A stretch of 64,000 bases of DNA from Cyanobacteria bacterium P01_F01_bin.150 (GCA_039189765.1 JBCCYL010000001.1:132577-196576); one strand, 5' to 3'. Positions 1,148 to 58,340 are shown, counted from the stretch's first letter. Made by a program: numbers and translations. Notes: generated from the letters alone by a model not told the origin.

Positions 1148-4100
1148 ATGCCAGTCGTTAGTTTAAGTACAAGTACCAATTTCAGCGGGTCAGAAAACGC
1201 CCTAATTGAAAATGAAGGTACAGAGCTAACTCTCACATTTAGCCTTGATGAGCCAGCGCCTGCTGGAGGGCTAAAGGTCTACGTTGACAGTGATGTTCCA
1301 GAAATCCTAAATCGCCTCAATCTAATTTTGTTGGCGTTTGACCCTTCCAGATTATCTAATCTGACTGCCAGTCAAGCAGCCTTTACAGATTTTTCTAACA
1401 GTGGATTCACCGCCACCATTAATGCGGGTGCCACTGAAGCTTCGGTCACTGTTCCGGTTTTCGATACAAATGAGTCGACCCCTGATCCCTTTTTCCCGGA
1501 TACTTATGACGGATTAACGACAGCGACCTTTACGCTTAAGACGCGAGACCAGATCGACTCCGTTGACGAAACAAGTCCCAGAGGGAATACCGGAAACGAT
1601 TTGGCGGCGATAGAGAACGATGGCGTTCCCGTAAGTGACTACACCATTGGTACCGCGTCCAGCACCGTTCTATTTGTAGATGATGTCAGTCAGCTGCCTT
1701 CTGACCCCACACCCACACCCCCTCCCACACCCCCTCCCACACCCCCTTCGCCAGCGAACGGCTACGATGAAGCGACCAGTGGCGATATTTCTGATAATCC
1801 TTCTAATCCCATTGAGCTGGATCTTGCAGAAGGAACGACTCAATTGTCTGCAACGACAGGCGGTGGTGATCAGGAATATGTAACCGTAACGGTTCCTGAT
1901 GGCACTCAGCTTGATTCCATTACCGTGGACTCCTATTCCACTGGGGATGTGGCCTTTATCGGTGTTCAGGAAGGCAGCACCTTTACTGAGCCACTAGATA
2001 ATAGTGCTGATGTGGGTGAGCTGCTTGGCTATGCCTTGTTTGATAATGGCGACGAAGGGACTGACATTCTAGACAACATCGGTAGAGGTGATGGCGCAGA
2101 AGGGTTCACAGGTCCTTTGCCCAGCGGTACCTACACGTTTGCCCTTCAACAGTTGGGTGCCAGCAGCGACTACACTCTAGACTTTAATGTCTCTGAAGCG
2201 TCTGCTCCAACCCCCACTCCTCCTCCCACTCCAACCCCTACCCCTCCTCCTTCTGGTCCTCCGGTCGTCAGCTTTGAAGCTGTCCCGGCAACGATTTCTG
2301 AAGAAGCCCCCGCTGAGGATCGGCTGCTAAGGCTGGAGTTTTCTGTTGCTGGAGAAATTCCTGAAGGTGGTCTAGTAGTTCTCTTCGAAAACCTCTTTGG
2401 CATTACCGATCAGGCCGATAGCGAAGCTGAAGGAGCCGCCTTTGAAGGTTTAGGTCTAGCACCACCTTTTGACCAGGAAAATAATATTATCGGTATTCGC
2501 CTATTAGAAAACCAAGCTGCAATCCAGCTACCGATGATTAACGACTTGGTTGAGGAGACAACCACGTTTGACTTCCGCTTGCTTGAGGGCGAGGGCTATG
2601 AGCTTGATCCGGACCAGAATGCAACGCTGTTCACCATCACTGACGACAATGGTGGTCCCGGTGTTGGTCCGACCATCGGCTTATCGGTATCTGAAACCAA
2701 CCTGGCAGAAGGTGATACCTTTACGGTCAACTTTGCAGTTGATGGCACGATCCCAGCCGGGGGCATTGATGTCCTAGTAACAAGCGATGAAAGTGTTGCG
2801 GGTCCCCTTGGGCAGTTTGAATTGTCTAATCTTGAGACACTACAGCTCTCTGGTGTTAGCAACCTGCGCCCCGGAGACGACCGTGGTCAAAGCTTTATTG
2901 CCACTATCACTGAGGCTAATGCATCAATTACCCTATCTGTCTTTGATGACATTATTGCAGAGGAACCGGTTGACATTCCATTTATTTTAGCCAACGGTGA
3001 GCTTTACGAAGTAGACCCCAACGCGGCTGACGTAACCCTAACCATTTCTGATGAACCCCAACCCGTTGGTCCTACGGTTGGTATTTCCCTTGACAAGACC
3101 GACGCAGTTGAAGGGGATTCAGTCACTCTATCGTTCAATGTTGAAGGGGATATTCCTGACGGCGGCCTTACGGTTCTAGTTAACGACACCACTAGTGCTC
3201 GCACTGGTGCCAGAAGTCTAACTGAATTTGATATTGCCGGAGTTCAGCTCAGTGATGGCATTGATGGATTCCCCATTGCGGCTGAAGGCGACAGCGGTTT
3301 CTTCGTTACGTTAACTGCTGCAAATGCCAGCATCACTCTACCCGTAATTGATGACGGTGCAGATGAGGATGAGGCGCTAGAGATGTTCACCTTTGAGGTC
3401 ATTGATGGTGAAGCCTATGAAGTCAGTGCTGATGCGGGTAGCGTAACGCTAAATATCAGCGATGCGGCACCTGTTGCCCCAACGGTCAGCCTGAGCACTG
3501 ATGTGACTACGCTGATTGAATCCGAAGGGACGATTGTCACCTTTACCCTAGAAACATCCGGCACTCTTCCTGAGGTTGTCCTGGATGAGGATGGTGACTA
3601 TGTCTCCGGTGGGTTACCTGTAACATTGCAGATTGATTCGGCTCAACTTGAGTGGTTCTTTGACTTTGACAACAACAGCCGTCCACGGACAAACGCTGAA
3701 ACTGGTAGCTTCAATGAGGTTCTAGTCCTTGGCGATAACTCCACAGGTATTGCTGGCGGTCGCTTGATTGGTACATTGCTGCCACCCGATTTCAACACGG
3801 TGGAGCTGACTCTCACAGAGAGCACTGCGTCCTTCCAGTTTGAAGTCTTTGACGACGTATTTGCTGAAGCGAATGAGGACATTACGTTCACCTTGTTGGG
3901 TGGTGATGGCTACGAAGTCGCAGCAGACGCCACTCCTGTAACCCTGACCCTACAGGATAGTCCTGATGGAACAATTGACGGCACGACTCCTGTTGTTAGC
4001 CTATCCGTCGATAGCACTACTGTTGCAGAGGGAGACGCTCTAACGGTTACCTTTAACGTGACTGGCGATATTCCTGACGGCGGTCTTCTTGTCTTTGTTG

Positions 4101-7100
4101 ACAGTAATGCCTCTGGAGTACTGGGTGAGTTTAATCCAGACGAAGTTGTATTCACAGGCTTGGCGGCACCTCCAGGACCGGATACAGACGCGGGGGGTTT
4201 TGCTGCATTGATCAGTGAGAGCACCGCAACAATTACCCTACCGGTCTTTAAGGATGGTTTGGGAGAAGGGGTAGAGACTTACACCTTCAACATTGTGGAT
4301 GGTGAAGCCTACGATCCCGATCCGGCAGCTAGCGAAGTGACTCTTTCCATTGAAGAGACACCTCCAGTGATTTCCGTTGATTTAGTGGGCGGCGTATTTG
4401 ACGGCAGTGATTTGCTGACGCCTAATCTGGTTGAGGCTCCCGAAGCAGGCACACCCGTTTTGAGCGTTGTGGTTCAGTCTGATGCGCCTATCCCTGAAGA
4501 AGGATTGGTTGTTGATATCAATACTGATCTTGCCGATATCACTGAATTTGTTGAAGGCTCTAACTTTGTCCCCACAGCCTTTGGTGGCGAAGTCCTCGGT
4601 GCTATTTATGATGCCGACGGCAATGCAACTGGCTTGACGGTCAGAATGGATGCGTTTAATACCGTTATTAACTTTGTCGGTGGCTTAGGCCTAGAGGGCG
4701 ACGGCCCCCACGAGGTTAACTTCTCTGTGGAGCCAGGCGCAGGCTATACTCCGGCGGCTGATAGTGCTGGCATTACGGTCTATGACACGATTGACCAGGT
4801 TCCAGCGGTTACATCAGTTCCTGAAGTTGGCATCAATATTGCGGAGCAGCGTCGTCCCCTTTCCGAAGGTAGCGGTGCAATTACCGTGGACTTCACCGTT
4901 ACCGGTGACATTCCTGATGAGGGCGTTATCGTTTATGTCAGCACTGGAGAACGTGCTGGATTGGGCGATTTTGACTTGCTAAATGCAGGGGTTGTTGGCG
5001 GTACGTTCCCACCTCCCGATGGAAATGCAGGCGGCTTTTACTTCAAGATCACCGAGCCGACAGCTAGCATCACCTTGCAAGCGGCTGTGGATGATGAGAT
5101 TGAAGGGATTGAAGACGTTAACATTGCGATTCAGCCTCTATCTGGCTACACCATTGCTGATGGTGCGGGTGAAGCAACTGCACTGCTTCGCGAGGGCCGA
5201 GGCTCTGAGATTCAGATCAGCCTGGACGGGTCTCCCGATGTTCTGGTTGAGGAAGAGGGCACGGTTGCAACCGTTGAGCTGAGCTTGAGTGCTCCCCCTC
5301 CTGCGGAAGGGATAGAGGTCACGATTGATGCGGCTGAAATGATTGAGTTTGATCCTCAGACTCTAACCGTATCAGATGGTGTGATTCCGGTAAGCGCAAA
5401 TGAAGACAACACTAGCTTCACTATTCTTGTCCAGCAGCAGGACGTTAGCCTGAGCGTTGCGATCGCCAACGACGGTGAAGCAGAAGGTCTTGAAACCGCC
5501 ACCTTTAGTTTGGCAGAGGGAGAGGATTATCAAATCGATCCCGAGGCTGGGTCCAGCACCTTTACCATTGTGGATACTGCCGCTGATATTCCGGCTGCGC
5601 CTATCACTGAGAGCACCCGTAGCTCCCGTGATTCCATTGGTGACACCATTGCAGAGGCTGAATCCACTGGTTTAAGTGCTGACAACAGCCGCGTCACGGT
5701 TCAAGCCGCTATTAACGGTAACTTCTTTAATGGCGATCGGGTTCGCACCGATACCACTGAAGATGTGGATATGTATTCGGTGGAGCTATCTGCGGGTGAT
5801 GTATTGCGTCTTGATATTGATGCTCAAATCAACAGTGATGAATCTCCGGATACGGTGCTGCGGCTATTTGACGCCGATGGAAACCAGCTTGCTCAGAGCG
5901 ATGATGATTTTGCTCCCGATGAGCTGTTTGCTCCTGGTCGTCGCGATTCCTACATCGAGTTTACGGCTGAAACTGCTGGAACTTACTATGTGGGCGTCAG
6001 CAGCTTTGGTAATGGTCTCTTTGACTTCTGGACTAACGACGACGGCACGTTTGACAACGATTTCTACGATCCAAACGTAGCGGGTAGTGGTGCCGGTCGT
6101 AGCGACGGTCCATACACCCTAAATCTGTCCCTTAATGAAGCACCTAATGCAGCAGAAACTGAGATTCCTGCCAGCACGGGTGAAGGGCCAACGGTTTCTC
6201 TCTCAGCCACAGCTGCCACCTATGACAGCAGCGACAATCTGATTGCTAGCACTTTGGTTCAGTACACGCCGGAATTTAGAAACGCCTCTATTTTGACCCT
6301 GAGTCTTGATGTTGATGGTGAAATCCCTGAAGGCGGTGTTGAGACCTACATAACCACTGACGTTGACCTTTCTACCCTCTTTAGTACTAGCCAACCCTTC
6401 AGCTCAGAGGGCGTAGAAGTGCTTGGGGCAGTGTACGACGATGCAGGTGCCCCCGTTGGCTTGAAGGTGAATCTCACCACGGCAAGTGGCTTTATTAACC
6501 TCAACCTCATTGATCCTGAGGAAGCACCCACCGATGGTGAAGGGACGATTACCGTTACCCTGGAGCCTGCAGCTGGCTATACCGTGGGTGAAGGGACCTT
6601 CTCTGCCACTATCTACGACACGCTAGACGATGTACCTGATTTGCCAACGGTACCCACGGTTAGTATCTCCGTTAGTGAGACAACGTTAATTGAGTCTGAG
6701 GGCAATACTACAACCCTTACTTTTGAACTCAATGAGGCACCTCCAGCGGGTGGATTGACGATCAACGTCGACAGCGGTGTGCGTGCAGCCTTGGGTGAGT
6801 TTGACGTGTTTAATGCTGAGATTGAGGGCGGTAATTTCCCCTCCCCCAACTTCCGCGCCAGCGGTTTCTTCTTCACCATGACGGAGCAAACCGCAACTAT
6901 CACCCTAGCCGCCTTTGACGAAACCACTAATCCAGAAATCTCGGCTGAAAATGCACTAGAAGGAATTGATGAGTTTACGTTTACCGTGCAGCCAGGTGCT
7001 GGCTATGCCATTGCTCCCAATTCCAATGCGGTGACCGTAACCATCGCGGATAATCCTGACTCGGTTGTCCTGCCTGATGACGATGGTAACGACGACGGTG

Positions 7101-10100
7101 GCTCTGATGCTGGCGGTTTGACTGAGAGCGAATTTAACGACACCATTGCAGATGCGATGGACACTGGTCTTAGCTCGACGAGCCCAATCTTTAGAGTTAA
7201 TGGTGAGATTGATAACAGTCGTCAGACTCGCAACTTTGTTGATGCTACTGAGGACGTTGATATCTACGCCATCACTCTAGAGGCTGGCCAAGTGGTCATT
7301 CTAGACGTAGATGGCGGCGGTACTGGCGATGCGGGTGTAGAAGGGTCCTTGCTTGATAACATCCTGCGGGTGTTTGATGCAGATGGCAACGAAGTCGCTA
7401 TCAATGAAAATGGTGGTGCACCAGATGAAGTCTTCCAAGCTAACGGTGATGCTTATCTGGAGTTTGAAGCACCTGCGGCGGGTACCTACTATGTGGGAAT
7501 TAGCAACCTAGGTAACAACTTCTACGACCCCAACGTTCAAGCTAGCGGCAGCGGCTGGGAGTTTGAAGATCGCTTTGAGCCTGGTCCTTACAGATTTACG
7601 GCAACTCTGAAAGGGGCTGTTGCTAATGATAACGACAGCGTTAGCGGCAACGATGACACCATCGCCAACGCTCAGACTCTAGACCTAACGGCAGACAACC
7701 CCAACATCTTGGTTGAAGCGGCGTTTGAACAGCGCTATTTGGATCGTAGCAACACCGTGGATGCCACTGAAGATGTGGATATGTTTGCGGTCCAGCTACA
7801 AGCGGGTGATGTTATCACTGTCGATGCGGACTCTGTACTGGTTGACTTTGACGGCTTCCCCTCCGGCCCTGCTCCTGATATCACTATCTTTGACGCCAAT
7901 GGCGACAGAGTGGTAATTGGTCAAGATGAGAATGGTGAAGATATCGTTGCTTACTCCCGTATCGGTGGTGCTCCTGATGAGGCCTTTATTGCTGGACGCG
8001 ATGGCTATATCGAGTTCACAGCCCCTGAAACCGGCACGTACTACATCGGTGCATCCCAGTATCGTAACGATAGCTACGATGCAAACGTGGTAGGCAGTGG
8101 TTCCGGTGCGGTCTTTAGTCCTCGTTTCGGCGTTCTAGCGGGTGGTGAATACACTCTAAACATTCAGCTCAACCCCGAAGGGTTTACGGGTGACGTGTAC
8201 GAAGCATTCGACGGTACCCCTGCGGATGATGCACCTACGGTAAGTTTCACGACGACTGGTGGAACCTTTGCCCGTGGTGATGTCCTTGTCTCTGACCAGA
8301 TTATTGAGTCTGAGGATGCGGGTACGGCAATCCTTGACTTTACCTTCAATGTGGATGGTGAAATCCCTGAAGGTGGTCTAGAGGTGTTCGTCACTAGCGA
8401 CACTGACATGACTACCTACTTCGAGGGATTGTCTTCTAACCCACGGGTGGCAGTCGGTGGGGAAATCACTGGTGGTCTGTACAACACGGCAGGCGAACTG
8501 ATTGGCTTCAAGGCAGTATTAACGGCCAGCAATGCCCGGTTCCCCTACAATGCGGCCCATCGTGAAGATGATGACCCTACGGCACCAGAGACGCTGACCT
8601 TCTCCTTGGCAAGTGGTCCTGCTTACCAGGTAGATGACTCCTCTTCCTCTTCTGCGGTTACCTTCTACGACGACCTGACGCAAGTTCAGGCCAGTGGTGG
8701 CCCTGTCCCTGAAGTGGCGATCGCGGTCGATACCAACGAACTGATTGAGTCCGAAGGCACAGAATTGACGCTGACGGTGAACGTCACAGGCGACATTCCT
8801 GCCGAAGGTTTGTTGATCGCCATGGACGGTCAAGTCCCTGGCACAGAAGATTCAGCACGTGGCTTCCTGGGTGAGTTCGACGTATTCAACGCCGAAGTAA
8901 CTGGTGGTCCATTCCCATCTCCCAACGGCAGCGCCAGCGGCTTCTTCTTCCGCGTCTTTGAGAACACTGCAACGATTAAGCTACAGGTATTTGATGAGAC
9001 CACCAATGATCAGATTGCACCGGAAGATGCCCTGGAGGGTGTAGAGGACTTCACCTTCTCTGTATTGGCAAGCGATGCTTACACCATCGACGCAACCGCC
9101 AGTTCGGTAGACATCACCATCAAGGACAACCCTGATTCTGTGCCTTTGACAGATGATGGTGGCGATGGTGGCAACGGTGGTGACGGTGGTGCAACCGATG
9201 GTCCTATCACCGATAACGATGGTCGTAGCACTATTGATGACACCATTGAGACCGCTAATCCGACTGGTTTGAGTCCAAATCAGACTGAGGTTAGTATTGA
9301 AGGCTCCATTGCTGTTCGCTGGCGGAATGCGGCGGAACAACGGGCTGACAACACTGAAGACGTGGATATGTACTCCTTCGACTTGGCTGCGGGTGAAACC
9401 GTATCCATCGATGCGATGTCTGTACCGTTTGAGCTAGATGGCACCACCCAAGTGACGGCTCCTACGCTGCGAGTATTCAACGCTGCAGGTGAAGAGCTGG
9501 CCATCAGCGGTAGTGAAGTAGGTGGTCCTGTGGTAGCAGACCCCTCCCTTGAGTTCACTGCAACTGAAGCGGGTACCTACTATGTGGGTGTCTCCCAGTA
9601 TCTGAACGATAACTATGATCCAGCTGTAAATGCCAGTGGTGATGGTGTTCAGTTAGTGGATGAAGGCATTAGTCCTGGAGAATACACGCTCAATCTGTCA
9701 TTGACCACTGATCAGCCAGCGGTTCCTGTTATCAGCATCAACATTGAGCCAGACGTGCTGTCTGAGGAAGATGCCGATGATACGTTGGTTAGCGTCGGAT
9801 TTAACGTTGATGGCGAGATTCCAGAGGGTGGCCTATCGGTGCTTGTTACCGGCAGCGTCAATATCCTTGACCAGGCAGATGGCGCACGGGACATCGTGTT
9901 TGATAATGCGGTTCTTGGTGAGTTCTTCGATCCTGCTACTGGTACTTTTGAAGTCATTGTTTCCGATAACAGTGGAGCAATCATTCTGCCTATCTTGAAC
10001 GACATTATTCAGGAAGCGGATGAGGATTATACCTTCACCATCATTGAGAACGATGGGTCCATCGACTCCACCTATGCGGTCGATGCAGATGCTAGCACTG

Positions 10101-19112: not shown

Positions 19113-19144
19113 GATAGCTAACTAGTACCGCGTCAGCTTTATTT

Positions 19145-19180: not shown

Positions 19181-19202
19181 TTTCCTGACAGAGTACTAGC
19201 AT

Positions 19203-19400: not shown

Positions 19401-20063
19401 ATGATTGTTGAAATTCCTAATGTTTTTTCTCAAAATGAAGTAAAAGATATTGTTGATAAACTTTCTGCCTCAGAATTTATTGATGGAAAGAAAACGGCGG
19501 GTTGGAATGCTCGGGCTGTTAAGAATAATGAGCAGCTCAAAGCCAGTGATCCTGCTGCTGCTGCTCTCAAGGAGATGGTGAAAACGAAGCTCAACAAAAA
19601 CTTTCGTTTTCAGTCAACGGTTCGCCCAAAGAATATCCATACTCTGCTGTTTAGTCGGTACGAAGTCGGCATGTCCTATGGGCGACATAATGACAATGCA
19701 ATGATGTCGGGGAAATGGCGAACTGATGTTTCCTTCACCATCTGGCTAACTGCCCCTGAAACCTACAAGGGAGGAGACTTAGTTATTGAAGGCCCAAGTC
19801 GTGAATCATCCTATCGTTTAGCCGCAGGGTCAGCCATTACCTATCCATCCTCAACTCTCCACCGTGTTGATCCAATTACTGAGGGAAGTCGATGGGCGAT
19901 CGTAGGCTGGGTCCAGAGTTGGATAAGAGACCCGGCCCATCGCGAAATTCTATATGATTTGGATACAGCTCGTCGCTCCATTTTTGATACCCATGGCAAA
20001 AATAAAGAATTTGATTTGGTGTCTAAGAGCTTAACTAATCTACTGCGTAGCTGGATGGAGTAA
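19401..20063 (+). CDS. piuC: Fe(II)/2-oxoglutarate-dependent PKHD-type hydroxylase (PiuC/YbiX family)
   Basis: 220 aa with DGKKTAG...VKNNEQL, YGRHNDNA (HxD), RTDVSFT, Y.GG.L, YPSSTLHRV (distal His), SRWAIVGWVQSWIRD and a C-terminal NLLRSW. Confidence 0.92.
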   Translation: MIVEIPNVFSQNEVKDIVDKLSASEFIDGKKTAGWNARAVKNNEQLKASDPAAAALKEMVKTKLNKNFRFQSTVRPKNIHTLLFSRYEVGMSYGRHNDNAMMSGKWRTDVSFTIWLTAPETYKGGDLVIEGPSRESSYRLAAGSAITYPSSTLHRVDPITEGSRWAIVGWVQSWIRDPAHREILYDLDTARRSIFDTHGKNKEFDLVSKSLTNLLRSWME

Positions 20064-26984: not shown

Positions 26985-27147
26985 ATGAATCAACCATTTG
27001 TTAGTTTGAGTGCAAAGCCAGATTCAGCTTTAGAAGGCGATCGCACCACAGTTACCCTAACGTTTAGCCTAAATATTATTCCTCCAGAGTCGAGTCTAAC
27101 CCTCTAAGGTAGACAGCCCAGACTTGGGGGAATTTGACGTTTATTGA
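26985..27147 (+). pseudogene. Decayed remnant of one family repeat module directly upstream of P4
   Basis: ATG 26985 reads MNQPFVSLSAKPDSALEGDRTTVTLTFSLNIIPPESSLTL*. After a +1 shift it continues KVDSPDLGEFDVY*. This matches the repeat pattern VSLS..P....E....VT..F.L...PP..GL.V.VD...LGEFDV. Confidence 0.6.
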
Positions 27148-44451: not shown

Positions 44452-44537
44452 GCAATTTCCTCGTTCCCAGCGTCTCGCCTGGAACATCGTGTTTCTTATA
44501 ACGTTGCACTATTTTGGATTCTGGAGAAAATCAATTT

Positions 44538-47685: not shown

Positions 47686-47752
47686 GCGAAACAAGATGAA
47701 CGGTGGTGTGGGCGCGACGTGCCCACACCACTCGCCTAAGTTCGATCCCCCC
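47686..47752 (+). repeat. Intergenic hairpin repeat, copy D
   Basis: GCGAAACAAGATGAACGGTGGTGTGGGCGCGACGTGCCCACACCACTCGCCTAAGTTCGATCCCC. Confidence 0.7.
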
Positions 47753-47833: not shown

Positions 47834-50800
47834 TTGATAATGACAGACGCTCAAAATTCTGAATCTACAGGTGGTCGCAATCTTTCCGGAGCGCTCTATG
47901 TTGCGGACCAAACATTAGACACCCTATTGCTGGTTCAAGACTTAAATGGTGACGGTGATGCCAACGATCCGTCGGAAGCAACCGTGTATTTTGATGGCAC
48001 AAATGCGTCGGGACTTTTAGAGCCAACGGGCAATATTTTTACAGTCCTACAGGCCGCAGATGGTTCTGTACTCTATGGTGACGGCGATAGTGATACTGTT
48101 TATCGGTTGACCGATACTAACCGTGATGGTGATGCTCTAGATGCGGACGAGGCCACGGTTTGGTTCTCCTCAGACAATGCAGAGGGTCTGCCGTTGCTGA
48201 CCCCCAACGGTTTAGCCACAGGTCCCGATGGCGCAGTTTACATCACAGAAGCCGATACAGTCGCCACGCCCAATGGTGATTTTATCTATCGCACCGAGGA
48301 TTTGAACGGTGATGGCGACGCCAATGATGCAGATGAAGCGAGGGTCTGGTTAGATTTAAAGGCCCTAAATCCTAACTCCTCAGCGTTTGAAATTACCTTT
48401 ATCGGAGATGTTGCCTACATTATCGATAGTGCAGGTGGTGACCCCAACGTACTTTATCGAGCGGAAGATGCAAACGGCGACGGAACCATTGACACAAGCG
48501 AAGCATCGGTGCTGGTGGACGAAACCATTGTTCCCGTTGATTTTGGCCTTGCAAGTGACAGTCAAAGTCTTTATGTGGTGGAGCTTTTAGATTTCTCAGA
48601 GGCGCAATCTGTCTTTAGAATTGACGACAATAACGGCAGTGCCACGGTCACTGAAGTGTGGAACAATACGGCAGTGCCTGATGGCTACCTGTCCTCCGTT
48701 GCCTTCTCCATCGCTGCCAGTGATAACGGCATGCTAGCAATCACCTCCAACGGTGTTGATCCTAACGAGGACAATATTTTTCAACTAACGGACCTTAACG
48801 GCGACGGTGATTACTTTGATGAGGGTGAGACCGTGCCCTTTCTCTCTCGCCTAGATACTGACACTGTTCCCGAACGACCAAGGGTGGTGGAGTATGCGGC
48901 GAATCCCACGCCAATAGTTCCTGGCATTGTTCTTACGGCAACCGATGCTTACTATACATTCAGCGGTAGTATTAGCTCAAATAGCACTCGCCTGCTGGGG
49001 GATAAAGCAACGGCTATTGGGCTGGAGGGATTGGACACTATTTCGTTTCTACAGTTTGATCCAATGGCGCTACCAGAAACGCTGCTAGACCAGGCATTTA
49101 GCGCAACTCTGACCCTAGAGCATGACGCATCTTTGGCTGATTCGCTAATTCCCGCCACCGACGATCGCCCGGTTATTCTCAGCATCTATGATCTGGATGC
49201 ACCCTTTGATGACACCAAGCCCGGTGGTAATCTGGCTGACATTGACTATGGGGAGAATGGGGCAAATGCGATCGCCGTTACATCAGTCGGTGATGATGGC
49301 CTATACAGTTGGGATGTCACGGAACTGATAGCAGAATGGGCCGTTGACACAACTCAAAATGACGGCTTGGCCATTAGCGGGATCTTTGGCAACGAAAACC
49401 TGGATGATCGCAACAGCTACGGCATTTTCCACACCGTTGGCTCTACGGATGGACTCGTGCCGACTTTAACGATCACCCCAAAAGAAGACGATTTGCAAGT
49501 TAGTCTATCCACGTCCACCACGTTTGAAGGTGACCTTAATGCTCTGGTGGAAAATCAAGGAACAGCCATCACCTTTCGCTTTGACTTGAGTGGGCCTGCC
49601 CTGGCAGGTGGCCTGACTTTATTTGTTGATGCAGACGTCGAGCAAATGTTGAATCGGCTGGATTTGCCCACGTTTGCATTTAACCCCATCACTGAAAATA
49701 TTGACTTTAGAAGCGTTATTCCCAATCGTGACAGCTCCGGCTTTGTCCTGACTATTGATGAAGGAGCCACTTTTGGCACTGCAACGCTTAACATCTTTGA
49801 CAATAACGAACCTGAGCCAACCCTTCCCGAGACCTTTGATGGCCGCGTCGATGCAACCTTCTCCCTAGTTACGGAGGACCAAGTCGATCGCGATATCGAA
49901 GGACCGATTCCGACCTTAAGCGACTATACGATCGATCCAGCCGCCGCCACCAGCGTTGTTATTTTTGCAGACGATATTAGCCAACTTGAAGATCCGACCG
50001 ATCCTCAGCCTCCCACACCGGGTGACGGCCTCCAGGTTAGCCTCTTTACCGGGCCAAATTACCTGATTGAAGATGAGGGCACCGTGAGCGCCCATGCCTT
50101 TAACGTCACTGGAGGCGTTATCCCTGAGGGTGGCCTGGTGGTTGCAGTAGACGCCCCCAACCTCAACGAGTTTGATCTAGCAGCGATCTCAGTGGAAGGC
50201 GGTTCCATTGAAGCAGTGCGCGATGGCGGCTTTGATTTGCGGATGACCGAGTACACGACTCTGGTCAACCTCCCCATTGCCAATGATGGTGAAATTGAAA
50301 TTGGTGAAACCGCCAGCTTTAGCTTGGCTGCGGGAGATGGCTACAACATTGTCGCCGACTACAGCGGCGGCAGCTTTGGCTTGGTGGATACGCGATTGGA
50401 CATTCCCATGGGCGTGATCAATGAACCCAATAATGCGATCGCCTTTGCCACCGAGACCCAAATCAGCCCTGAAAACCCCACCTTTTTGGGCACGGATTCA
50501 ATCTATTTTGATATCGGTAACCGCTATCTTAACGACGATGGCACCTACACCTATATCGACTACAGCGAGGACGTAGACGTCTTCAAAGTTGATTTAACCG
50601 CTGGGCAGACTATTACCATTGAGACCTTCGACTTTGACACCAACGTTGACGAATTTGGCGTCGGTTTTGCCATTAACGCCTTTGTCTACGATGCTGAAGG
50701 TAACCAGCTTCAGGACTATATCAATACGGGCTTTGATCCGGCGGCGGCCCCCGACAAGCTGTTTGGTGGCCTTGGTCCCTTTGATGTGAATGAAACCGAC

Positions 50801-53800
50801 AGCTACGACGAATTTACTGCGCCCGCAGACGGCTCCTACTTTATTGCTGTCGGTGATGATGGCCAGGTGCAGAACTTCTGGGATGTGGTGGCCCCGTTCT
50901 ATGATCCCAACGTACCGGGTTCCGGTAACGGTAATCGCTCCATCTTTGGTGATTACAGCATTGAAATTAATTTAATCACCGACGACAATCCCCGCAAAGT
51001 CGGTACCCCCACCCCGCCGGTGAGCAACCCTGGTGTAACGAATCCTCCCACCCTGTCCCTAAGCGCGAATCCCACCACCACCAATGGAGACGGCAACTTT
51101 ATTAATGCGGTGGTGGAACATGTAGACGTGGGTGGTGTGTCCAGCGTTACCTTTACGATTCAGGCTGAGGGAGAAATTCCGGACGGTGGTATTGAGTTTG
51201 TTCTTAATAGCGATGCCAATCTGTTTGATTACGTATCATATTTAGGCCAAAGCGCCCTGCCCAGCACCATTGGTGGTCAGTCCCTAGGCGCTTACTACAA
51301 CGCAGACGGCATTCCCACGGGCATCCGGCTGCTGATTGATGAGCCCTTGATGACCGTCACCTATGAATCGGCCAATAATCAGCCCTGGTTCCCCACTTTC
51401 TACGGCAATATTGTGGATCGGTATGAGCCGTTGGAAACTGATGGTGCAGAGGACGTGACCTTCTTCCTCCAGCCCGGTGAAGGCTATACCATTGATGCTG
51501 ATGCCGGATCAACCGAGGTCACTTACTATGATTCCGTGGCCGATGTGCCCCCTCCCACTACCCCTGGAGGCACGGTGCCTGAAGTGGGGATTACGGTCAG
51601 TGAAACAACTCTGATTGAAACCGAACAGACTGAAACAACCTTGACCTTTAGCCTCTCTGAAGCACCTCCCGCAGAAGGGCTAACCATCTTTGTTGATAGT
51701 GACGACGAGCCTGTGGTGGGGAGTCCCCTCAGCCAGTTTGCCGTGCTAGAGGCAGAGGTCAGCGGAGGAAACTTCCCGATTCCCAATGCTGATTCTTCAG
51801 GCTTCTTTTTCACGGTCACTGAACAAACCGCCTCCATTACCCTCGCTGTTTTTGATGAGCTAACGGTTCCCAATATTGATCCGCTGACGGTTCAAGAAGG
51901 AATCGTTGCCCTTAACTTTGCCCTCCAGCCATTGGCAGGCTACACCATTGATCCAGATGCCAGTGACGTTGGCCTAACGATCGCCGACAATCCCGACTCT
52001 GGCATTCAGGTCAGCTTGACGGGTTCCCCAGACACCCTGATTGAATCAGAGGGGACTGCAGGAGTCCATACCTTTAGCTTGAGTACGCCTCCATCCGCCG
52101 AGGGATTAACGGTGAGCGTCAGTGCATCGGCGTTGGATGAGTTTGATTTGGATGCGATCGCCGTCGAAGGCGGCTCCATTGCAGCCGTGAGCACCGATGG
52201 GTTTGACCTTACGATTACCGAGCAGACCGCCACCATTAGCCTGCCAGTACTCAACGATGGTGTGGATGAAGGGAGTGAAACCGCAAGCTTTGCCCTAGAG
52301 GCCAGCGATGACTATGAGCTTAACGCCGCCTTTAATGAAGCCACCTTTACCCTAGCGGATACCCTAGACCAGGCGACTGTTTCAGTGGAGAGTGAGCTAA
52401 TTGGCGATGAAATTAGCAACAGCACAATTCCCGAGGCAAATGCATTAAGCGTCAGCAGCAGTAATCCCACCGTATCCATCAATGGTCTGATTGGTGAAAG
52501 CTTTAGCGACCTTCCAGAGGACGTTGATTTCTTCTCCTTCGATTTGGACGCTGGGCAAACCATTAGTTTAGATATTGACACTGAGGAAATTCTGCCCAAC
52601 ACGATTAACTTCCGGCAGGTCGTGTATCCAGCATTGGCCAATATCCTGCAGAAGCCTGATACTGAACTGCGGCTATTTGATGCCCAGGGCAATGAACTGG
52701 CATCCAACAATGACGGAGCCGCTGAGGATGAAGACTTCTCCCGCGATCCCTTCCTTGAGTACACGGCCACGTCTGCGGGCACCTATTATGTAGGGGTTAG
52801 CCAGCTTGGTAACCGCAACTACGACCCCTTTGTGTCACGGAGCGGTAGCGGCTGGACCTTCCCTGAGATTGGCGTAAACAATGGGTTTTATGAGCTGACC
52901 GCCACCCTGGAAGATAGCGATTTGGAGCCAGGCCCCTTTGAAAACTTGGTTATTTTTGGCGATAGTCTTTCCGATGCAGGCAACGCCTTCCAGATCTCAG
53001 ACGGTGCAGTTCCTCCATCTCCGCCTTATGTTAACGGACGTTTTTCAAACGGTGATTTAATCGTAGATTTTATTGCCGAGGCCCTGGGGTTACCCGAAAA
53101 TGAAAGCTATCTTTTAGGCGGCAGTAATTATGCCTTTGGTGGTGCCCAGACTGGTGAAGGAACGTCATTTACAGGTACGTTGGAAGGTCTACTTAATCCG
53201 GTAGAGGTTCCCAATATTGCCCAGCAAATTGATCTTTACCTGGCCGATCAGACACCCGCCAACACCGACTTATTCTTTATCTACGGTGGTGGTAATGACT
53301 TTATCGCGCCCTTAGCTGCGGGCCAAGGAATACCCACGCCAGAATCAGTCGTTGGCAATATTACTGCCCACATTACAGAACTGGCAGAAGCGGGGGCAAC
53401 AACCTTTGTGGTGCCAAATCTCCCATCCCCAGGCATTAGTCCTCTATTTGCGGGTCAGCCGCCAGAAGTAAGGGGGCTTCTCAATAATGCAACCGATGCG
53501 TTTAATCAACTGCTGGATGTGGAATTGGATGCGATCGCCTCAGACCTAGATGTGACGATTCTTGAGCCTGACTTCAACGGCATTGTGGATGATATACTCG
53601 CCAATCCCAGTCAGTTTGGTCTGACCAATGTCACTGATTCCGTGATCGACTTTAGTAGCGGCACCCTGATTGGCAATCCTGATGAATTTTTCTTCTGGGA
53701 CTTCGTTCATTCCACAACCGCTGCCAACGATATCATTGCGGATGAAGCGATCGAGCTACTATTGGATAACCCTGATCCGGGTCCACCGGCAGGCTTTACG

Positions 53801-54841
53801 GTCTTTGACTTTGAATGGACTGGCCAAATTGCTGGGTTCAGCGTGGAGGGTACTTTCAGCTATGATGCAACCCAAACCTTCACCGACGATATTGTTCGCG
53901 AAGAGGATCTGCTTGGATTTGATATCTCTTTCTTTGACCCCGATGGTAATCTACTGCGGACCTACGAAAATAACCATCTCACGTTCTCTGAGTTCAACTT
54001 TGCCTTCGATATCAATAATCAGCAAATTCTGACCGATGGTATCTTTACCGAACCCGATGGCTTAAACGTTGGGGAGAAGACCGCTGTGGGCGATGGCTTT
54101 ACGGGGTTAAATCTCTGGAGTAAGTCCAAAGAAACCTCCTCTTCGCTGATTCATGTAGATGACTGGTCCGATGAATTTGGTTTCCCCTTGGGCTACAGCA
54201 GTCACGAAGATATTGCCTTCTTGACCCTGACCACGGCAGAGCTAATTGAAACGGGCAAGGTGGGTGAAACCTATCTGGATGATATCCAAGATACTCTGAC
54301 CGAATTGGGCCAGCCGATTCGGGTGGTTCCCGACGGCGGGTTAGAGGCTGATAGCCTTGATTTTGAATCCAACTTCCAGGGAGAGCTAAGCGCTGGGGAT
54401 GTGATTACCGATCAGTTTGACGATCTCACCATCGAGGTAGCGGGTGATTTAACGGCCATGATTTTTGATAGCGCCAACCCAACCGGAGGCGATTACGACC
54501 TGCGTAGCGATACGCTGGGTAATGTTTTAATCATCTCTGAAGATGGCGACTCAGCAGACCCCGACGATAACGCCAAGGGCGGTACCCTAATGTTTGATTG
54601 GGACGGGACGGTAAGCGTGGAGAGCCTCGGTCTTCTCGACATTGAAGAATCGGGCGGCATGGTTACGCTGTACGGAGCCGATGACAATGCGGTGTTGGCA
54701 ACTATCGATATTCCTGGATTAGGAGACAATAGCCTCCAGTCTCTCGATATCGGTATCGCTGATATCGGCAAGATGGACGTATTTCTGGCTGGCAGTGGAG
54801 CCATTACTGAAATAATCCTAGCGGAGGACAGCATCGCATAA
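47834..54841 (+). CDS. P8: giant acidic protein (~2335 aa) with a DxNxDG-repeat propeller-like domain, DNRLRE-like domain, two PPC-like domains, GDSL/SGNH esterase, FEWTGQ module and the shared C-terminal domain
   Basis: Five D[LTA]N[GR]DG motifs. SFLQFD...YSWDVTELI...PTLTI marks the DNRLRE-like domain. Esterase motifs are LVIFGDSLSDAGN, GRFSNG, NYAFGGA, GGNDF and FFWDFVH. The start is TTG 47834 or ATG 47840. Confidence 0.88.
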   Translation: MIMTDAQNSESTGGRNLSGALYVADQTLDTLLLVQDLNGDGDANDPSEATVYFDGTNASGLLEPTGNIFTVLQAADGSVLYGDGDSDTVYRLTDTNRDGDALDADEATVWFSSDNAEGLPLLTPNGLATGPDGAVYITEADTVATPNGDFIYRTEDLNGDGDANDADEARVWLDLKALNPNSSAFEITFIGDVAYIIDSAGGDPNVLYRAEDANGDGTIDTSEASVLVDETIVPVDFGLASDSQSLYVVELLDFSEAQSVFRIDDNNGSATVTEVWNNTAVPDGYLSSVAFSIAASDNGMLAITSNGVDPNEDNIFQLTDLNGDGDYFDEGETVPFLSRLDTDTVPERPRVVEYAANPTPIVPGIVLTATDAYYTFSGSISSNSTRLLGDKATAIGLEGLDTISFLQFDPMALPETLLDQAFSATLTLEHDASLADSLIPATDDRPVILSIYDLDAPFDDTKPGGNLADIDYGENGANAIAVTSVGDDGLYSWDVTELIAEWAVDTTQNDGLAISGIFGNENLDDRNSYGIFHTVGSTDGLVPTLTITPKEDDLQVSLSTSTTFEGDLNALVENQGTAITFRFDLSGPALAGGLTLFVDADVEQMLNRLDLPTFAFNPITENIDFRSVIPNRDSSGFVLTIDEGATFGTATLNIFDNNEPEPTLPETFDGRVDATFSLVTEDQVDRDIEGPIPTLSDYTIDPAAATSVVIFADDISQLEDPTDPQPPTPGDGLQVSLFTGPNYLIEDEGTVSAHAFNVTGGVIPEGGLVVAVDAPNLNEFDLAAISVEGGSIEAVRDGGFDLRMTEYTTLVNLPIANDGEIEIGETASFSLAAGDGYNIVADYSGGSFGLVDTRLDIPMGVINEPNNAIAFATETQISPENPTFLGTDSIYFDIGNRYLNDDGTYTYIDYSEDVDVFKVDLTAGQTITIETFDFDTNVDEFGVGFAINAFVYDAEGNQLQDYINTGFDPAAAPDKLFGGLGPFDVNETDSYDEFTAPADGSYFIAVGDDGQVQNFWDVVAPFYDPNVPGSGNGNRSIFGDYSIEINLITDDNPRKVGTPTPPVSNPGVTNPPTLSLSANPTTTNGDGNFINAVVEHVDVGGVSSVTFTIQAEGEIPDGGIEFVLNSDANLFDYVSYLGQSALPSTIGGQSLGAYYNADGIPTGIRLLIDEPLMTVTYESANNQPWFPTFYGNIVDRYEPLETDGAEDVTFFLQPGEGYTIDADAGSTEVTYYDSVADVPPPTTPGGTVPEVGITVSETTLIETEQTETTLTFSLSEAPPAEGLTIFVDSDDEPVVGSPLSQFAVLEAEVSGGNFPIPNADSSGFFFTVTEQTASITLAVFDELTVPNIDPLTVQEGIVALNFALQPLAGYTIDPDASDVGLTIADNPDSGIQVSLTGSPDTLIESEGTAGVHTFSLSTPPSAEGLTVSVSASALDEFDLDAIAVEGGSIAAVSTDGFDLTITEQTATISLPVLNDGVDEGSETASFALEASDDYELNAAFNEATFTLADTLDQATVSVESELIGDEISNSTIPEANALSVSSSNPTVSINGLIGESFSDLPEDVDFFSFDLDAGQTISLDIDTEEILPNTINFRQVVYPALANILQKPDTELRLFDAQGNELASNNDGAAEDEDFSRDPFLEYTATSAGTYYVGVSQLGNRNYDPFVSRSGSGWTFPEIGVNNGFYELTATLEDSDLEPGPFENLVIFGDSLSDAGNAFQISDGAVPPSPPYVNGRFSNGDLIVDFIAEALGLPENESYLLGGSNYAFGGAQTGEGTSFTGTLEGLLNPVEVPNIAQQIDLYLADQTPANTDLFFIYGGGNDFIAPLAAGQGIPTPESVVGNITAHITELAEAGATTFVVPNLPSPGISPLFAGQPPEVRGLLNNATDAFNQLLDVELDAIASDLDVTILEPDFNGIVDDILANPSQFGLTNVTDSVIDFSSGTLIGNPDEFFFWDFVHSTTAANDIIADEAIELLLDNPDPGPPAGFTVFDFEWTGQIAGFSVEGTFSYDATQTFTDDIVREEDLLGFDISFFDPDGNLLRTYENNHLTFSEFNFAFDINNQQILTDGIFTEPDGLNVGEKTAVGDGFTGLNLWSKSKETSSSLIHVDDWSDEFGFPLGYSSHEDIAFLTLTTAELIETGKVGETYLDDIQDTLTELGQPIRVVPDGGLEADSLDFESNFQGELSAGDVITDQFDDLTIEVAGDLTAMIFDSANPTGGDYDLRSDTLGNVLIISEDGDSADPDDNAKGGTLMFDWDGTVSVESLGLLDIEESGGMVTLYGADDNAVLATIDIPGLGDNSLQSLDIGIADIGKMDVFLAGSGAITEIILAEDSIA

Positions 54842-54923: not shown

Positions 54924-57900
54924 ATGGTACAAGTTAGCCTTTTTACGGGTCCCGACTATCTAATTGAAAATGAAAGTACGATTAGCGCCCACGCCTTTCT
55001 TGCCACTGACGGCATCATTCCCGCAGGTGGCCTGGTGGTCTCGGTGGATGCGCCTAGCCTCAGCGAGTTTGACCTTGCAAGCATCTCTGTCGAGGGGGGC
55101 GAAATTGTCGCCGTGCGCGATGGCGGCTTTGACCTACGGATGGACGAATACACCACCCTGGTGAATCTGCCCATTGCCGATGATGGCGAAGTGGAAATTG
55201 GCGAAACAGCTACCTTTAGTCTGGCCACAGGTGAAGGCTACGATACCGTTGCCGATTTTAGTGGCGGTACCTTTGAATTGGTAGATACACGAGCCGATAT
55301 TCCTCAGGGCGTGATTACTGAACCAAATAATATTGCTATTGTCGCTACCGATACGCAGATTACCCCGGAAAACCCCTCCTTTGTGGGCAGAGATTCTATC
55401 TATTTTGATATCGGCAATCGCTACCTTAACGACGACGGCACCTTTACCTATATCGATTACTTCGAGGATGTCGATCTCTACAAGCTGGATTTAAGTGCAG
55501 GTAATACGGTTGCGGTTGAAATCTTTGAGGTTGAAGGCAACTTACCCATTGGTATAGCGGAAGGCTTGGCCGTCTTTAATGCCGATGGCGACAAACTGGT
55601 TGCCACTTCGGTTATAACCCCTGCTGCTCCCGATAAGCTATTTGGTGCGGGCGGTAGTCCCATATCTGCATTTAATGAAGATGGTACGGTCAATCTAGAT
55701 GAAACGGAAAATTATCTAGAATTTACGGCTCCCGAAGATGGGATTTACTACGTGGGGGTCTCTAACCTTGCGTCTTCTGTAGTTGAGTACATTGGCGTAA
55801 ATCGCGAGTACGATATCAATATTCCCGGTTCGGGAGGGTCCAATTTAGGCACTTTTGGCAACTACGATATTGAGATTGATCTGCTGACCCCCGATAATCT
55901 CCGCAAGACAGGAACGCCAACCCCGCCGGTCAGTAACCCCAATGTGACCAATCCCCCCACCTTTTCTTTGGCCGCTACCCCTAACACGGTAGATAGTGAC
56001 GGCAACTTAATCAATGGCGTCGTCGAAACCGTAGATCCAGGCAGCGTTTCGACGGTTAATTTCACGATTCGAGCTGAAGGAGACATTCCAGACGATGGCA
56101 TTGAATTTGTGCTTAACAGTAACGCCAATCTGTTTGACTATGTTTCATTTCTGGGTCAAGAAAGACTGCCCCAAACCATTGGGGGCCAATCTTTAGGTGC
56201 GTTTTATAATGCCGAGGGAATTCCTACCGGAATTCGACTGCGAATCGATGAACCGACGATGACAGTCGCCTTTGAAGCGGCTAATCGGAACGAACGATTT
56301 ATTGACCTGCTTGGCCTCAATGTCACGATCGATGTCTACGAGGCTTTAGAAACCGATGGCCCAGAAGATGTCACCTTCTTTATCCAGTCAGGAGAAGGCT
56401 ATGAGATTGCTGCCGATGGGGGCACCGTAGATGTCACCTACTATGACTCAGTCGCGGATGTGCCCCCGTCAACCGGCAGCGGCAACGCGATTCCTGAAGT
56501 TGGCGTGACCATTAGCGAAACGCAGCTAATTGAGACAGAAGAAACAGAAACCACCCTGACTTTTACCCTGTCTGAACCACCACCAGCCGAAGGCATTATT
56601 GTCGCCATTGACAGCGATGACGATCTGCTGGTTGGTGGCCCTCTGGGTCAGTTCGACGTGCTCAATGCCCAGGTTGCTGGCGGTGATTTCCCCATTGCTA
56701 ATGCCGATGAAACGGGCTTTTTCTTCAATATTACTGAGCAAACGGCTACCATTACCTTGTCGGTCTTTGATGAATTGACCACGGGACTTGGCCCCAACGT
56801 AGTGCAAGAAGGCATTGTTGCCCTTACCTTTGAGCTTGAGTCCCAGCCCAACTACACCATTGATCCCAACGCTAGTGAAATCGTCGTTACCATCGCCGAT
56901 AACCCCGATTCACAAATTTTGGTTAGTCCTGCTGCCTCCGGCGCAATCTTAATTGAATCCGAGGGTAGCGTCGGGACGCTGAGTTTAAATCTGGGTGCCC
57001 CACCCCCAGCCGCAGGCATTACCGTTAGCGTGAGTTCAGACTCCTTTGCTGATTTTAACGTGGATGCCATTACCGCAACGGGCGGTACGATTGTCGCCGT
57101 GGGCGACGATGGATTTGATGTCAACCTCACCGAACAAAATGGGACCGTGAGCTTGCCCGTTCTCGATGATGGTGTCGCTGAAGACAATGAAACGATCACC
57201 TTCACAATTGAACAGGGCGACACCTATGAAACAAATCCAGAAGCCGTTGACGTTAGCTTTAACCTAGCGGATACCATTGTTCAAGCCAGTGCCCCAGCGG
57301 AGATCGAACGGAATAACATTCTTTCGCAGGCCAATGAAATTGGTCTAAGTACAGAAAATCCCACCGTATCCCTTGATGCCGCTCTAGCGGGTTACAGCCC
57401 TTTTCTTTTTGACTCAGTTTTTGGTTATGCCGCAGATGTGGATTTTTATTCGGTCAGTTTAGACGCGGGCCAAACCGTCGCGATCGATATTGACGGCGAT
57501 ATCGGATTTGATCCGACTGCCTTTTCGCCGTTTCCTATAGTGTTGCCTGCGCTGGAAGAAGTCTTGCAGACAAGCGACACCGAATTGCGTCTATTCGATG
57601 CCCAGGGCAATGAACTGGCTGCCAATAGTGACGGTGCCGCCCCCGGTGAAGAGTTCTCCCGTGACCCCTATCTGGAGTTTACGGCTGAAACCGCAGGAAC
57701 TTACTATATCGGCGTTAGTCAACTGGGCAACCGTAACTATGATCCATTCGTTGAGGGCAGCGGTAGTGGCTGGACCTTCCCCGAGGTGGGTGTGCATATC
57801 AGCGACTACGAACTCATTGTCACTTTGGAATTAGATCTGGAGCTAAAGGACATCGACTTTGAGTCTAGTAGCCAAGGAGATCTGAGCCTAGGGGATGTGA

Positions 57901-58340
57901 TTACCGATCAGTTTGACGATCTCACCATTGAGGTGGCTGGTGATTTATCTGCCATGATCTTTGATAGCGCTAACCCAACCGGCGGCGATTACGACCTGCG
58001 TAGCGATACGCTGGGCAATATCCTAATCATCTCTGAAGACGGCGACTCCGCCGACCCCGACGATAACGCCAAGGGCGGTACCCTGATGTTTGATTGGGAC
58101 GGGACGGTGAGTGTTGACAGCCTTGGTCTTCTCGACATTGAAGAATCGGGCGGGATGGTTACTTTGTATGGAGCCGATGATACCACTGTCTTGGCAACGA
58201 TCGACATCCCTGGATTGGGCGACAACAGTCTTCAGTCCCTCAATATTGGCACCGCTGATGTGGGCAAGATGGACGTGCTGTTGGCTGGCAGTGGAGCCAT
58301 TACCGAAATCCTCTTGAGCGATAGTGAAACGGCTATCTAA
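54924..58340 (+). CDS. P9: acidic protein (1138 aa) with Ig-like repeats, two PPC-like domains and the shared C-terminal domain
   Basis: AGGAG lies at 54909-54913. The gene is colinear with the central part of P8 (LQVSLFTGP...SGSGWTFPE). Confidence 0.9.
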   Translation: MVQVSLFTGPDYLIENESTISAHAFLATDGIIPAGGLVVSVDAPSLSEFDLASISVEGGEIVAVRDGGFDLRMDEYTTLVNLPIADDGEVEIGETATFSLATGEGYDTVADFSGGTFELVDTRADIPQGVITEPNNIAIVATDTQITPENPSFVGRDSIYFDIGNRYLNDDGTFTYIDYFEDVDLYKLDLSAGNTVAVEIFEVEGNLPIGIAEGLAVFNADGDKLVATSVITPAAPDKLFGAGGSPISAFNEDGTVNLDETENYLEFTAPEDGIYYVGVSNLASSVVEYIGVNREYDINIPGSGGSNLGTFGNYDIEIDLLTPDNLRKTGTPTPPVSNPNVTNPPTFSLAATPNTVDSDGNLINGVVETVDPGSVSTVNFTIRAEGDIPDDGIEFVLNSNANLFDYVSFLGQERLPQTIGGQSLGAFYNAEGIPTGIRLRIDEPTMTVAFEAANRNERFIDLLGLNVTIDVYEALETDGPEDVTFFIQSGEGYEIAADGGTVDVTYYDSVADVPPSTGSGNAIPEVGVTISETQLIETEETETTLTFTLSEPPPAEGIIVAIDSDDDLLVGGPLGQFDVLNAQVAGGDFPIANADETGFFFNITEQTATITLSVFDELTTGLGPNVVQEGIVALTFELESQPNYTIDPNASEIVVTIADNPDSQILVSPAASGAILIESEGSVGTLSLNLGAPPPAAGITVSVSSDSFADFNVDAITATGGTIVAVGDDGFDVNLTEQNGTVSLPVLDDGVAEDNETITFTIEQGDTYETNPEAVDVSFNLADTIVQASAPAEIERNNILSQANEIGLSTENPTVSLDAALAGYSPFLFDSVFGYAADVDFYSVSLDAGQTVAIDIDGDIGFDPTAFSPFPIVLPALEEVLQTSDTELRLFDAQGNELAANSDGAAPGEEFSRDPYLEFTAETAGTYYIGVSQLGNRNYDPFVEGSGSGWTFPEVGVHISDYELIVTLELDLELKDIDFESSSQGDLSLGDVITDQFDDLTIEVAGDLSAMIFDSANPTGGDYDLRSDTLGNILIISEDGDSADPDDNAKGGTLMFDWDGTVSVDSLGLLDIEESGGMVTLYGADDTTVLATIDIPGLGDNSLQSLNIGTADVGKMDVLLAGSGAITEILLSDSETAI

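Follow-up and report, generated by a model that had tools for sequence, protein, structure and literature searches.

To our knowledge, the ways in which cyanobacteria export large proteins and exoenzymes are poorly known, and a 64,000-nt stretch of the genome of Cyanobacteria bacterium P01_F01_bin.150 (GCA_039189765.1 JBCCYL010000001.1:132577-196576; this whole stretch is called the window in the following) raises the question in the form of nine tandem genes, G1 to G9, that encode giant, acidic proteins. How would such proteins leave the cell, what would hold them at its surface, and which task would they have in common? The reading that we favour, with a confidence a little above even, is that the nine genes are a lineage-specific expansion cluster of exoproteins that lack signal peptides and would be exported in the style of type I secretion system (T1SS) substrates, that a jelly-roll domain at their end replaces the RTX repeats, and that together they form a toolkit displayed for the scavenging of nutrients.

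Nine giant proteins and their common end

The nine co-oriented open reading frames (ORFs) lie on the + strand between 1049 and 58340, encode 933-3,569 aa each and sum to 17,422 aa; the first of them opens at 1049, and the likely start of G1 is the ATG at 1148. In all nine proteins aspartate accounts for 8.9-11.4%, glutamate for 6.5-11.8% and lysine for 0.3-0.6% of the residues, the computed isoelectric point is about 4, and the cysteine count is 0 (9/9). A hydrophobic N-terminal leader, or a Sec or Tat signal, was found in none of the nine giants, whose chains open directly in a domain. Their N-termini differ, and the sole element common to all nine is a domain of about 155 aa that closes every chain (9/9), with a mean column identity of 78%. 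Since the copies of this domain are 60-89% identical in their DNA, they are diverged paralogs and not recent conversions. The initial annotation, made from the sequence of the window alone, had described nine co-oriented, Asp/Glu-rich paralogs that total about 17,400 aa and end in one common domain, and on these points it is borne out.

For the terminal domain, a Pfam search at E up to 10 returned one spurious match only (E 0.038), NCBIfam gave no match, the PDB gave no sequence-profile match at E up to 1, and the best match in the ESM Atlas, at 0.88, carried no named family; these searches support the view that no curated family covers it. In the published literature, with most subscription journals outside the coverage, no description of the domain or of the architecture of the array was found. 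The domain is nevertheless widespread: a profile search of 1.84 billion representatives detected it in 2,836 representative clusters at E up to 0.001, most of them from marine cyanobacteria and Rhodobacteraceae, and in 1,668 at E up to 1e-10. The best 80 genomic loci that hold it comprise 41 from cyanobacteria (Elainellaceae, Leptolyngbya, Halomicronema, Okeania, Crocosphaera and others), 38 from Pseudomonadota, mostly Rhodobacteraceae, and one from Pirellulaceae. The present genome has 33 ORFs with the domain, spread over 19 contig loci and with the domain terminal in 29 of the 33, compared with 0-9 matches in each of 16 genomes of the same family; in other families of the class, 14 genomes were searched and none has a match. 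What lies in the window is thus a single cluster within an expansion that extends over the whole genome, and it does not form the closed system of its own that had been proposed.

An AlphaFold2 model built from 45 diverse sequences (predicted local distance difference test, pLDDT, 94.2; predicted template modelling score, pTM, 0.89) is an all-beta jelly roll; it supersedes a first model, made from nine close paralogs only, which was poor (pLDDT 71). The best Foldseek matches are carbohydrate-binding modules (CBMs), namely CBM32, the CBM of Ape1, CBM6 and CBM61 (E about 1e-4, template modelling (TM) score 0.4-0.52, probability 1.00). An exhaustive structural scan (VIA) placed first a putative CBM of Aeromonas salmonicida (Z 10.5, root-mean-square deviation 3.2, 135 residues), followed by DUF4465/BtuJ proteins (Z 9.8-9.9) and then by many CBM6, 22, 32 and 61 chains (Z 8-9). 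The terminal domain is thus, by its model, a CBM-like jelly roll with a galactose-binding-domain-like fold, the scores giving the fold class only. With CBM6, 22, 32, 35 and 61 and with DUF4465/BtuJ it has the jelly-roll fold in common (Z 8-10.5, TM 0.4-0.52), and its acidic loops are conserved at the positions where many CBMs hold Ca2+. It differs from the CBMs in that no CBM Pfam family or PDB chain matches it in sequence, in that glycan binding is predicted here, and in its unusual conservation: across 45 sequences from two phyla the mean column identity is 46% and 21 columns are invariant. Most of these invariant columns fall in two acidic, glycine-rich loops, which from their motif resemblance may be calcium sites.

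Ahead of the terminal domain, the proteins are built from a stalk repeat of about 134 aa, of which our own iteratively built hidden Markov model finds 65 copies, and from a varied cargo. The features of the array are the following.

2..499, + strand: 3' end of an SbmA/BacA-type ABC gene, the second of two ABC_membrane_2 genes; it belongs to a neighbouring locus and is not judged to be secretion machinery.
1148..11758, + strand: G1, 3,536-3,569 aa; 15 stalk repeats; four PPC domains (+ strand; aa 1572, 2069, 2242 and 2771, numbered from 1049); spondin domain at nt 10580-11224 (NF038123, 150 bits); C-terminal domain at nt 11273-11755.
12645..19112, + strand: G2, 2,155 aa; 8 stalk repeats; histidine-phosphatase domains at nt 14400-14924 and 18033-18602; three long acidic (GEGAEG)n linker arrays of an 18-nt unit between stalk repeats (13028-16053, + strand); C-terminal domain at nt 18627-19109.
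19401..20063, + strand: PiuC/YbiX-family gene between G2 and G3, encoding a 220-aa PKHD-type 2-oxoglutarate/Fe(II) dioxygenase.
20915..26800, + strand: G3, 1,961 aa; 10 stalk repeats; unnamed modules; C-terminal domain at nt 26315-26797.
27134..31186, + strand: G4, 1,350 aa; N-terminal beta-lactamase-family serine hydrolase at nt 27242-28171; 3 stalk repeats; C-terminal domain at nt 30701-31183.
32284..38730, + strand: G5, 2,148 aa; 9 stalk repeats; C-terminal domain at nt 38245-38727.
38909..44410, + strand: G6, 1,833 aa; 9 stalk repeats; spondin domain at nt 42365-43009 (NF038123, 143 bits); C-terminal domain at nt 43925-44407.
44514..47315, + strand: G7, 933 aa; 1 stalk repeat; cadherin-like/Big_9 domain at nt 45111-45398; beta-lactamase-family hydrolase at nt 45924-46727; C-terminal domain at nt 46830-47312.
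47834..54841, + strand: G8, 2,335 aa; DNRLRE domain at nt 49028-49477; 5 stalk repeats; two PPC domains; GDSL esterase at nt 52946-53746; C-terminal domain at nt 54356-54838.
54924..58340, + strand: G9, 1,138 aa; 5 stalk repeats; two PPC domains (the second at nt 57435-57719); C-terminal domain at nt 57855-58337.

All of the cargo that had been claimed for the array (two phosphatase domains, two serine hydrolases, a GDSL esterase, two Spondin_N domains and eight PPC domains, four in G1 and two each in G8 and G9) was found. The stalk, claimed to be Calx-beta/Ig-like, fared less evenly. The repeats are real, and their ESM Atlas neighbours are LapA/Calx-beta clusters (0.95, with the 10 best family-bearing matches all in agreement), but Pfam support is weak: among 24 single repeats searched at E up to 1, Calx-beta matched 3 and BatD 5, and the whole of G2 scores 25.9 bits for Calx-beta (PF03160) against a cut-off of 27. 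No match below E 0.18 was obtained for the repeat against PDB sequences. The first 90 residues of G5 and G6, an unnamed N-terminal module (32284-32553 and 38909-39178), are the same, which points to a recent duplication or conversion of this module. GC-rich perfect or near-perfect palindromes lie upstream of G2, G6 and G8 (11899-11938, 38810-38836 and 47703-47731), and could be terminators or small mobile repeats; the copies at G6 and G8 are 88% alike over 42 nt. None of the palindromes is AT-rich or similar to a Fur box.

The terminal domain in the place of the RTX end

The proteins that carry the domain elsewhere give a first indication of what it may be for. We surveyed the cargo of 104 public relatives with lengths of 625-1992 aa, which remain of 120 listed rows once the 16 that belong to this genome are set aside; 27 of them hold phosphoesterase domains (5'-nucleotidase 9, PhoA 5, PhoD 5, GDPD/phytase-like 5, PhoX 2 and EEP 1), while five more hold vanadium-haloperoxidase-like domains; the names given to some of the Pfam accessions are presumed, in part after the source protein names. 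Families of the PhoA, PhoD, PhoX and 5'-nucleotidase type act outside the cytoplasm and elsewhere use Sec or Tat. When 35 such cyanobacterial enzymes with a terminal domain were inspected, a twin-arginine motif or an N-terminal hydrophobic stretch >2.0 was found in 0 of the 35; the proteins start in the catalytic domain, have a cysteine content near 0 and a D+E content of 13-21%, and their last domain strand is at the C-terminus or at most 25 residues from it. Extracytoplasmic enzymes of this kind, devoid of an N-terminal signal, need an export route that is independent of such a signal.

A comparison with another genus of the same family suggests which route this might be. The closest homologue of the PiuC-type dioxygenase of the window, 75% identical, is found in that genus (genome G009), and the other homologues in the family, including a second copy in the present genome on contig C95, are 47-56% identical; judged by sequence, the window gene is a diverged second paralog of the C95 copy. 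In a 6.3-kb contig of G009 (G009:C406:1-6278), two ORFs with stalk repeats lie to either side of the dioxygenase gene and on its strand. Both end in RTX repeats (HemolysinCabind, 6 and 5 stretches), and one opens with DUF4347; the jelly-roll domain is in neither. The nine giants, for their part, have no HemolysinCabind match and contain 0-4 chance GGxGxD strings per protein. Since the stalk proteins of G009 end in RTX repeats, the homologous stalk proteins of the sister genus are classical T1SS substrates, and sequence comparison places the jelly roll where these proteins hold their RTX block and signal. Genes that could serve such a route are present in the genome: C2 and C46 carry HlyB-type ABC genes that pass the curated cut-off, the one on C46 next to an HlyD-like gene, HlyD above cut-off lies on C7, and TolC-like genes are present below cut-off.

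From these data, which establish the architecture, the fold class, the distribution, the lack of signal peptides and the equivalence in position to RTX ends, we infer the export route, the binding of Ca2+, the anchoring and the physiological role as follows. The acidic, cysteine-free chain would be kept unfolded in the low-calcium cytosol and would leave the cell, C-terminus first, by a channel of the HlyB/HlyD/TolC type whose genes lie elsewhere in the genome. Outside the cell, the terminal jelly roll would fold first on seawater Ca2+, replacing the RTX block as folding nucleus, and its lectin-like face would anchor the protein on the polysaccharide layer of the cell or on a substrate, while the Calx-beta-like stalk would stiffen with Ca2+ and present the hydrolases and binding modules. 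The most likely theme is the scavenging of organic or particle-bound nutrients, phosphate esters being the most prominent in relatives. A broader form of the proposal, which we put forward tentatively and with the balance against it, is that the terminal jelly roll is a new class of C-terminal module for export plus anchoring; in one lineage of marine filamentous cyanobacteria, T1SS substrates would have exchanged their RTX block for it, and it would have captured Sec/Tat enzymes (PhoA, PhoD, PhoX, 5'-nucleotidase), so that one Ca2+-triggered module would drive secretion and hold the exo-toolkit on the polysaccharide coat, and the PiuC-type dioxygenase inside the array and the IutR-like regulators near paralogs would tie part of it to TonB-dependent uptake.

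Several observations weigh against the favoured reading. No T1SS genes lie beside the array, and none of the HlyB, HlyD or TolC-type genes is near the domain-bearing arrays; the ABC pair upstream of the array is of the ABC_membrane_2/SbmA-BacA type and follows a TonB receptor. Both HlyB-type ABCs occur in 17 of 17 family genomes, with or without the domain, so that their phyletic pattern is uninformative and no dedicated transporter can be assigned. The Z scores of the fold matches are middling, for a fold that is very common, and ligand and metal are predicted. Among the 150 best representatives, the C-terminal position accounts for 51, the N-terminal one for 22 and an internal one for 77, with several copies of the domain in some, and some relatives carry type IX secretion system (T9SS) tails. 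The runs listed for the stretch are three DNA marine metagenomes of one study, with no RNA run among them.

RTX repeats follow the domain in Rhodobacteraceae and also in a protein of 504 aa, encoded on contig C89 of the present genome, that has it at the N-terminus. Given such arrangements, and its internal and N-terminal positions, the domain is a mobile module of extracellular proteins and does not by itself constitute a secretion signal. The C89 gene (G000:C89:1100-21099) lies between two genes for proteins of about 1,650 aa with two-partner secretion (TPS) domains. Near the array, a 323-aa ORF just past it on the - strand (58465-59436) matches the RTX nonapeptide weakly once, at 23.2 bits (cut-off 23), and two small proteins that are more clearly of the RTX kind are encoded upstream of the window (C1:124297-126759).

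These positions also speak for an alternative in which the domain is only a carbohydrate-binding module for anchoring or targeting, export depends on some other, unrecognised signal, and the terminal position is incidental. The CBM-like fold agrees with it, as do the 99 of 150 representatives in which the domain is internal or N-terminal and the proteins in which it precedes RTX repeats or accompanies T9SS tails, since there it is not the signal. We nevertheless consider this alternative unlikely: it leaves aside that the domain is all that nine giants with differing N-termini have in common, that 35 of 35 cyanobacterial enzymes with a terminal domain lack an N-terminal signal despite their extracytoplasmic families, and that the domain stands where homologous stalk proteins have their RTX end.

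Iron, adhesion and assembly

The initial annotation had seen in the array an iron-regulated extracellular toolkit that mines minerals or organic particles under iron limitation. Taken as a Fur-controlled toolkit that feeds TonB-dependent uptake, this is a reading to which we give little credence, although several observations speak for it. The piuC-type gene noted inside the array is there (NF003974, 291 bits against a cut-off of 143, residues 1-219 of 220), and its 75% identical counterpart in another genus likewise has stalk proteins on both sides. The PiuC/YbiX-type dioxygenases of Proteobacteria show co-conservation with TonB transporters under Fur regulation and are needed for the function of these transporters (PMC12004947). 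Compared with the pairs formed by PiuC, YbiX or CciO with Fiu, PiuA or CciT, the gene at 19401-20063 is a full-length member of the same dioxygenase family, but neither it nor its counterpart in G009 adjoins a TonB transporter, both having stalk-repeat exoproteins as neighbours; for the window gene these are G2 and G3, and the nearest TonB receptor lies about 29 kb upstream (C1:120341-122749). A TonB receptor and an MFS_3 exporter form a pair 11 kb upstream of the array on the same contig. On contig C61 (G000:C61:4500-24499), a 1,353-aa DUF4347 and CHRD protein with the terminal domain is encoded 0.7 kb downstream of a TonB receptor, with genes for DJ-1, FecB-like and FecCD proteins and a second TonB receptor as neighbours. 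Across the genome, however, just 2 of the 19 domain loci are within 15 kb of one of the nine TonB receptors, against a rough chance expectation of about 0.4.

The best lead on such a link comes from outside the window, from one AraC subfamily (about 337 aa), which has 20 matches in this genome. Four of them are directly upstream of TonB receptors (three on C110, one on C43), nine are within about 5 kb of G9-like genes with PPC and the terminal domain (two each on C224 and C269, three on C202, one each on C176 and C103), and two are beside a stalk-repeat giant on C274; the MFS_3 exporter is also present in three places. Each of the close G9 paralogs on C224, C269 and C202 has an AraC regulator as its partner, and the AraC genes beside G9-like genes are 34-35% identical, over their full length, to those upstream of TonB receptors. 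In Synechocystis the AraC regulator IutR/PchR activates iron-uptake genes (PMC11221513 and PMC8634477), and the position directly upstream of TonB receptors on C110 and C43 resembles the arrangement of IutR/PchR (PMC11221513). The likeness is one of arrangement, with orthology putative, and unlike those loci the window has no AraC gene or remnant (best E 0.078).

The remaining evidence runs against iron. We scanned the ten upstream spacers for Fur boxes with a 19-mer consensus and a model of three NATWAT hexamers. For the consensus, the best match covers 13/19 positions, and 1 site was seen where 0.70 would be expected; the hexamers gave 0 sites for an expectation of 3.3, so the Fur-like boxes that had been reported are matches at chance level. 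A scan for Pho boxes, using a motif of three tandem 8-bp units at 11-bp spacing, yielded one weak site at 20638-20667, 277 nt upstream of G3, which matches at 20/24 against 0.11 expected in shuffles and has two good units and one poor one. Among 80 related loci in other genomes, 0 have a homologue of the window PiuC or of the TonB receptor within 10 kb. Nor does the cargo carry an iron theme: in the array as in relatives it consists of phosphoesterases and esterases, which point to phosphate esters and lipids, a recognisable iron-binding module being absent, and none of the 104 relatives holds a recognisable iron-uptake domain, against the 27 with phosphoesterases. A part of the family may be coupled to TonB-dependent uptake, and the link of the array itself to iron is circumstantial. 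What stands of the display toolkit first proposed is its core, for extracellular, calcium-dependent, stalked proteins with hydrolytic or binding modules are still the most likely interpretation; Fur control, a self-contained system and an iron-themed cargo find no support.

The array could also encode mainly adhesins or matrix proteins, akin to RTX adhesins or Rap proteins, that serve filament cohesion, sheath or gliding and in which the enzymes are secondary, a prospect that we rate as slim. Of the known systems, the RTX adhesins (LapA of Pseudomonas fluorescens and the FrhA type of Aeromonas and Vibrio) and the Rap and Ply proteins come closest to the array. The RTX adhesins too are giant, acidic and without signal peptide, possess a long extender of Ca-stiffened beta-sandwich repeats, to which the LapA/Calx-beta-like stalk compares, and carry ligand-binding or CBM modules near the C-terminus, the best fold match here being a putative CBM of Aeromonas; moreover, the stalk homologues of G009 do end in RTX repeats. 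In Aeromonas RTX adhesins, CBMs are described as emerging from split domains (PMC12077191). The differences are that the nine giants have no RTX nonapeptides and no adjacent T1SS genes, that enzymatic cargo is common, and that the genes are nine in tandem and 33 genome-wide; a retention module, LapG and LapD did not turn up, no search having been aimed at them. In the absence of nonapeptide repeats and adjacent T1SS genes, the array would work like the RTX-adhesin family, and not be a member of it.

The Rap and Ply proteins of Rhizobium leguminosarum offer a second parallel. According to PMC9298526 and PMC5061743, these substrates of PrsDE are an RTX-less family with one shared Ca-binding, lectin-type domain (Ra/CHDL), include some enzymes, and act on or in the acidic exopolysaccharide of the cell itself, which the Rap proteins, as T1SS substrates, bind (PMC9298526). 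They differ from the nine giants in that their shared domain is cadherin-like and the proteins are small, whereas here the domain is a jelly roll, for which secretion and polysaccharide binding are predicted. The LapA/Calx-beta-like extender, cadherin-like domains on paralogs, and one domain gene that adjoins Wza/Wzz-type polysaccharide export genes on C42 would also suit adhesins. Five hydrolase domains among the nine giants (two in G2 and one each in G4, G7 and G8) and the phosphoesterases in 27 of the 104 relatives speak against a role mainly in adhesion.

The window forms the final 64 kb of contig C1 in a metagenome-derived assembly of 10.6 Mb in 350 contigs with 4.7% contamination. Among the three metagenome runs, one holds 0.98 of the sampled words and is the probable source, whose Logan contigs span the region from piuC to G3 (19171-21975) and a second one that takes in the last part of G3, the whole of G4 and the first part of G5 (26584-32400), with 0 differences; the two further runs contain almost none of the words, and the read depth in the bridged parts is even (about 37-55). 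The G2-piuC junction is bridged by none of the listed Logan contigs, which break at a high-copy repeat, a dispersed element in this spacer (19118-19203) with a depth of about 465 against about 45 around it and many different continuations. A chimera produced by assembly through the repeated terminal domain, to which this unbridged junction, the fragmentation and contamination of the genome and the many domain genes at contig ends would lend themselves, is very improbable, since the Logan bridges are free of differences at even depth, the domain copies are merely 60-89% identical in DNA, and the synteny of piuC and stalk genes recurs in G009; the array shows no sign of it.

Neighbouring genes and significance

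Past the array, the window encodes an AAA ATPase of 348 aa and then an S8 peptidase of 796 aa at 60456-63885. Their best NCBIfam matches are the anti-phage proteins IteA, at 229 bits against a cut-off of 510, and IteS, at 112 bits against 900. With both scores below cut-off, the two genes are a distant IteAS-like pair.

The terminal domain marks phosphatases and esterases without signal peptides, as well as giant stalked proteins, across marine cyanobacteria, and it is both conserved and uncatalogued. If the favoured reading is true, the domain would be a testable tag for secretion or anchoring, from which exoproteomes could be predicted from sequence, and PhoA, PhoD and PhoX would be enzymes that can be rerouted from Sec or Tat to a pathway with a C-terminal signal. 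The recurring neighbours of its genes, namely the PiuC paralog, IutR-like AraC regulators, MFS_3 exporters and TonB receptors, are a lead on how surface capture may be coupled to TonB-dependent uptake. The same reading would explain how benthic and mat-forming cyanobacteria hold nutrient-scavenging enzymes at the cell surface.

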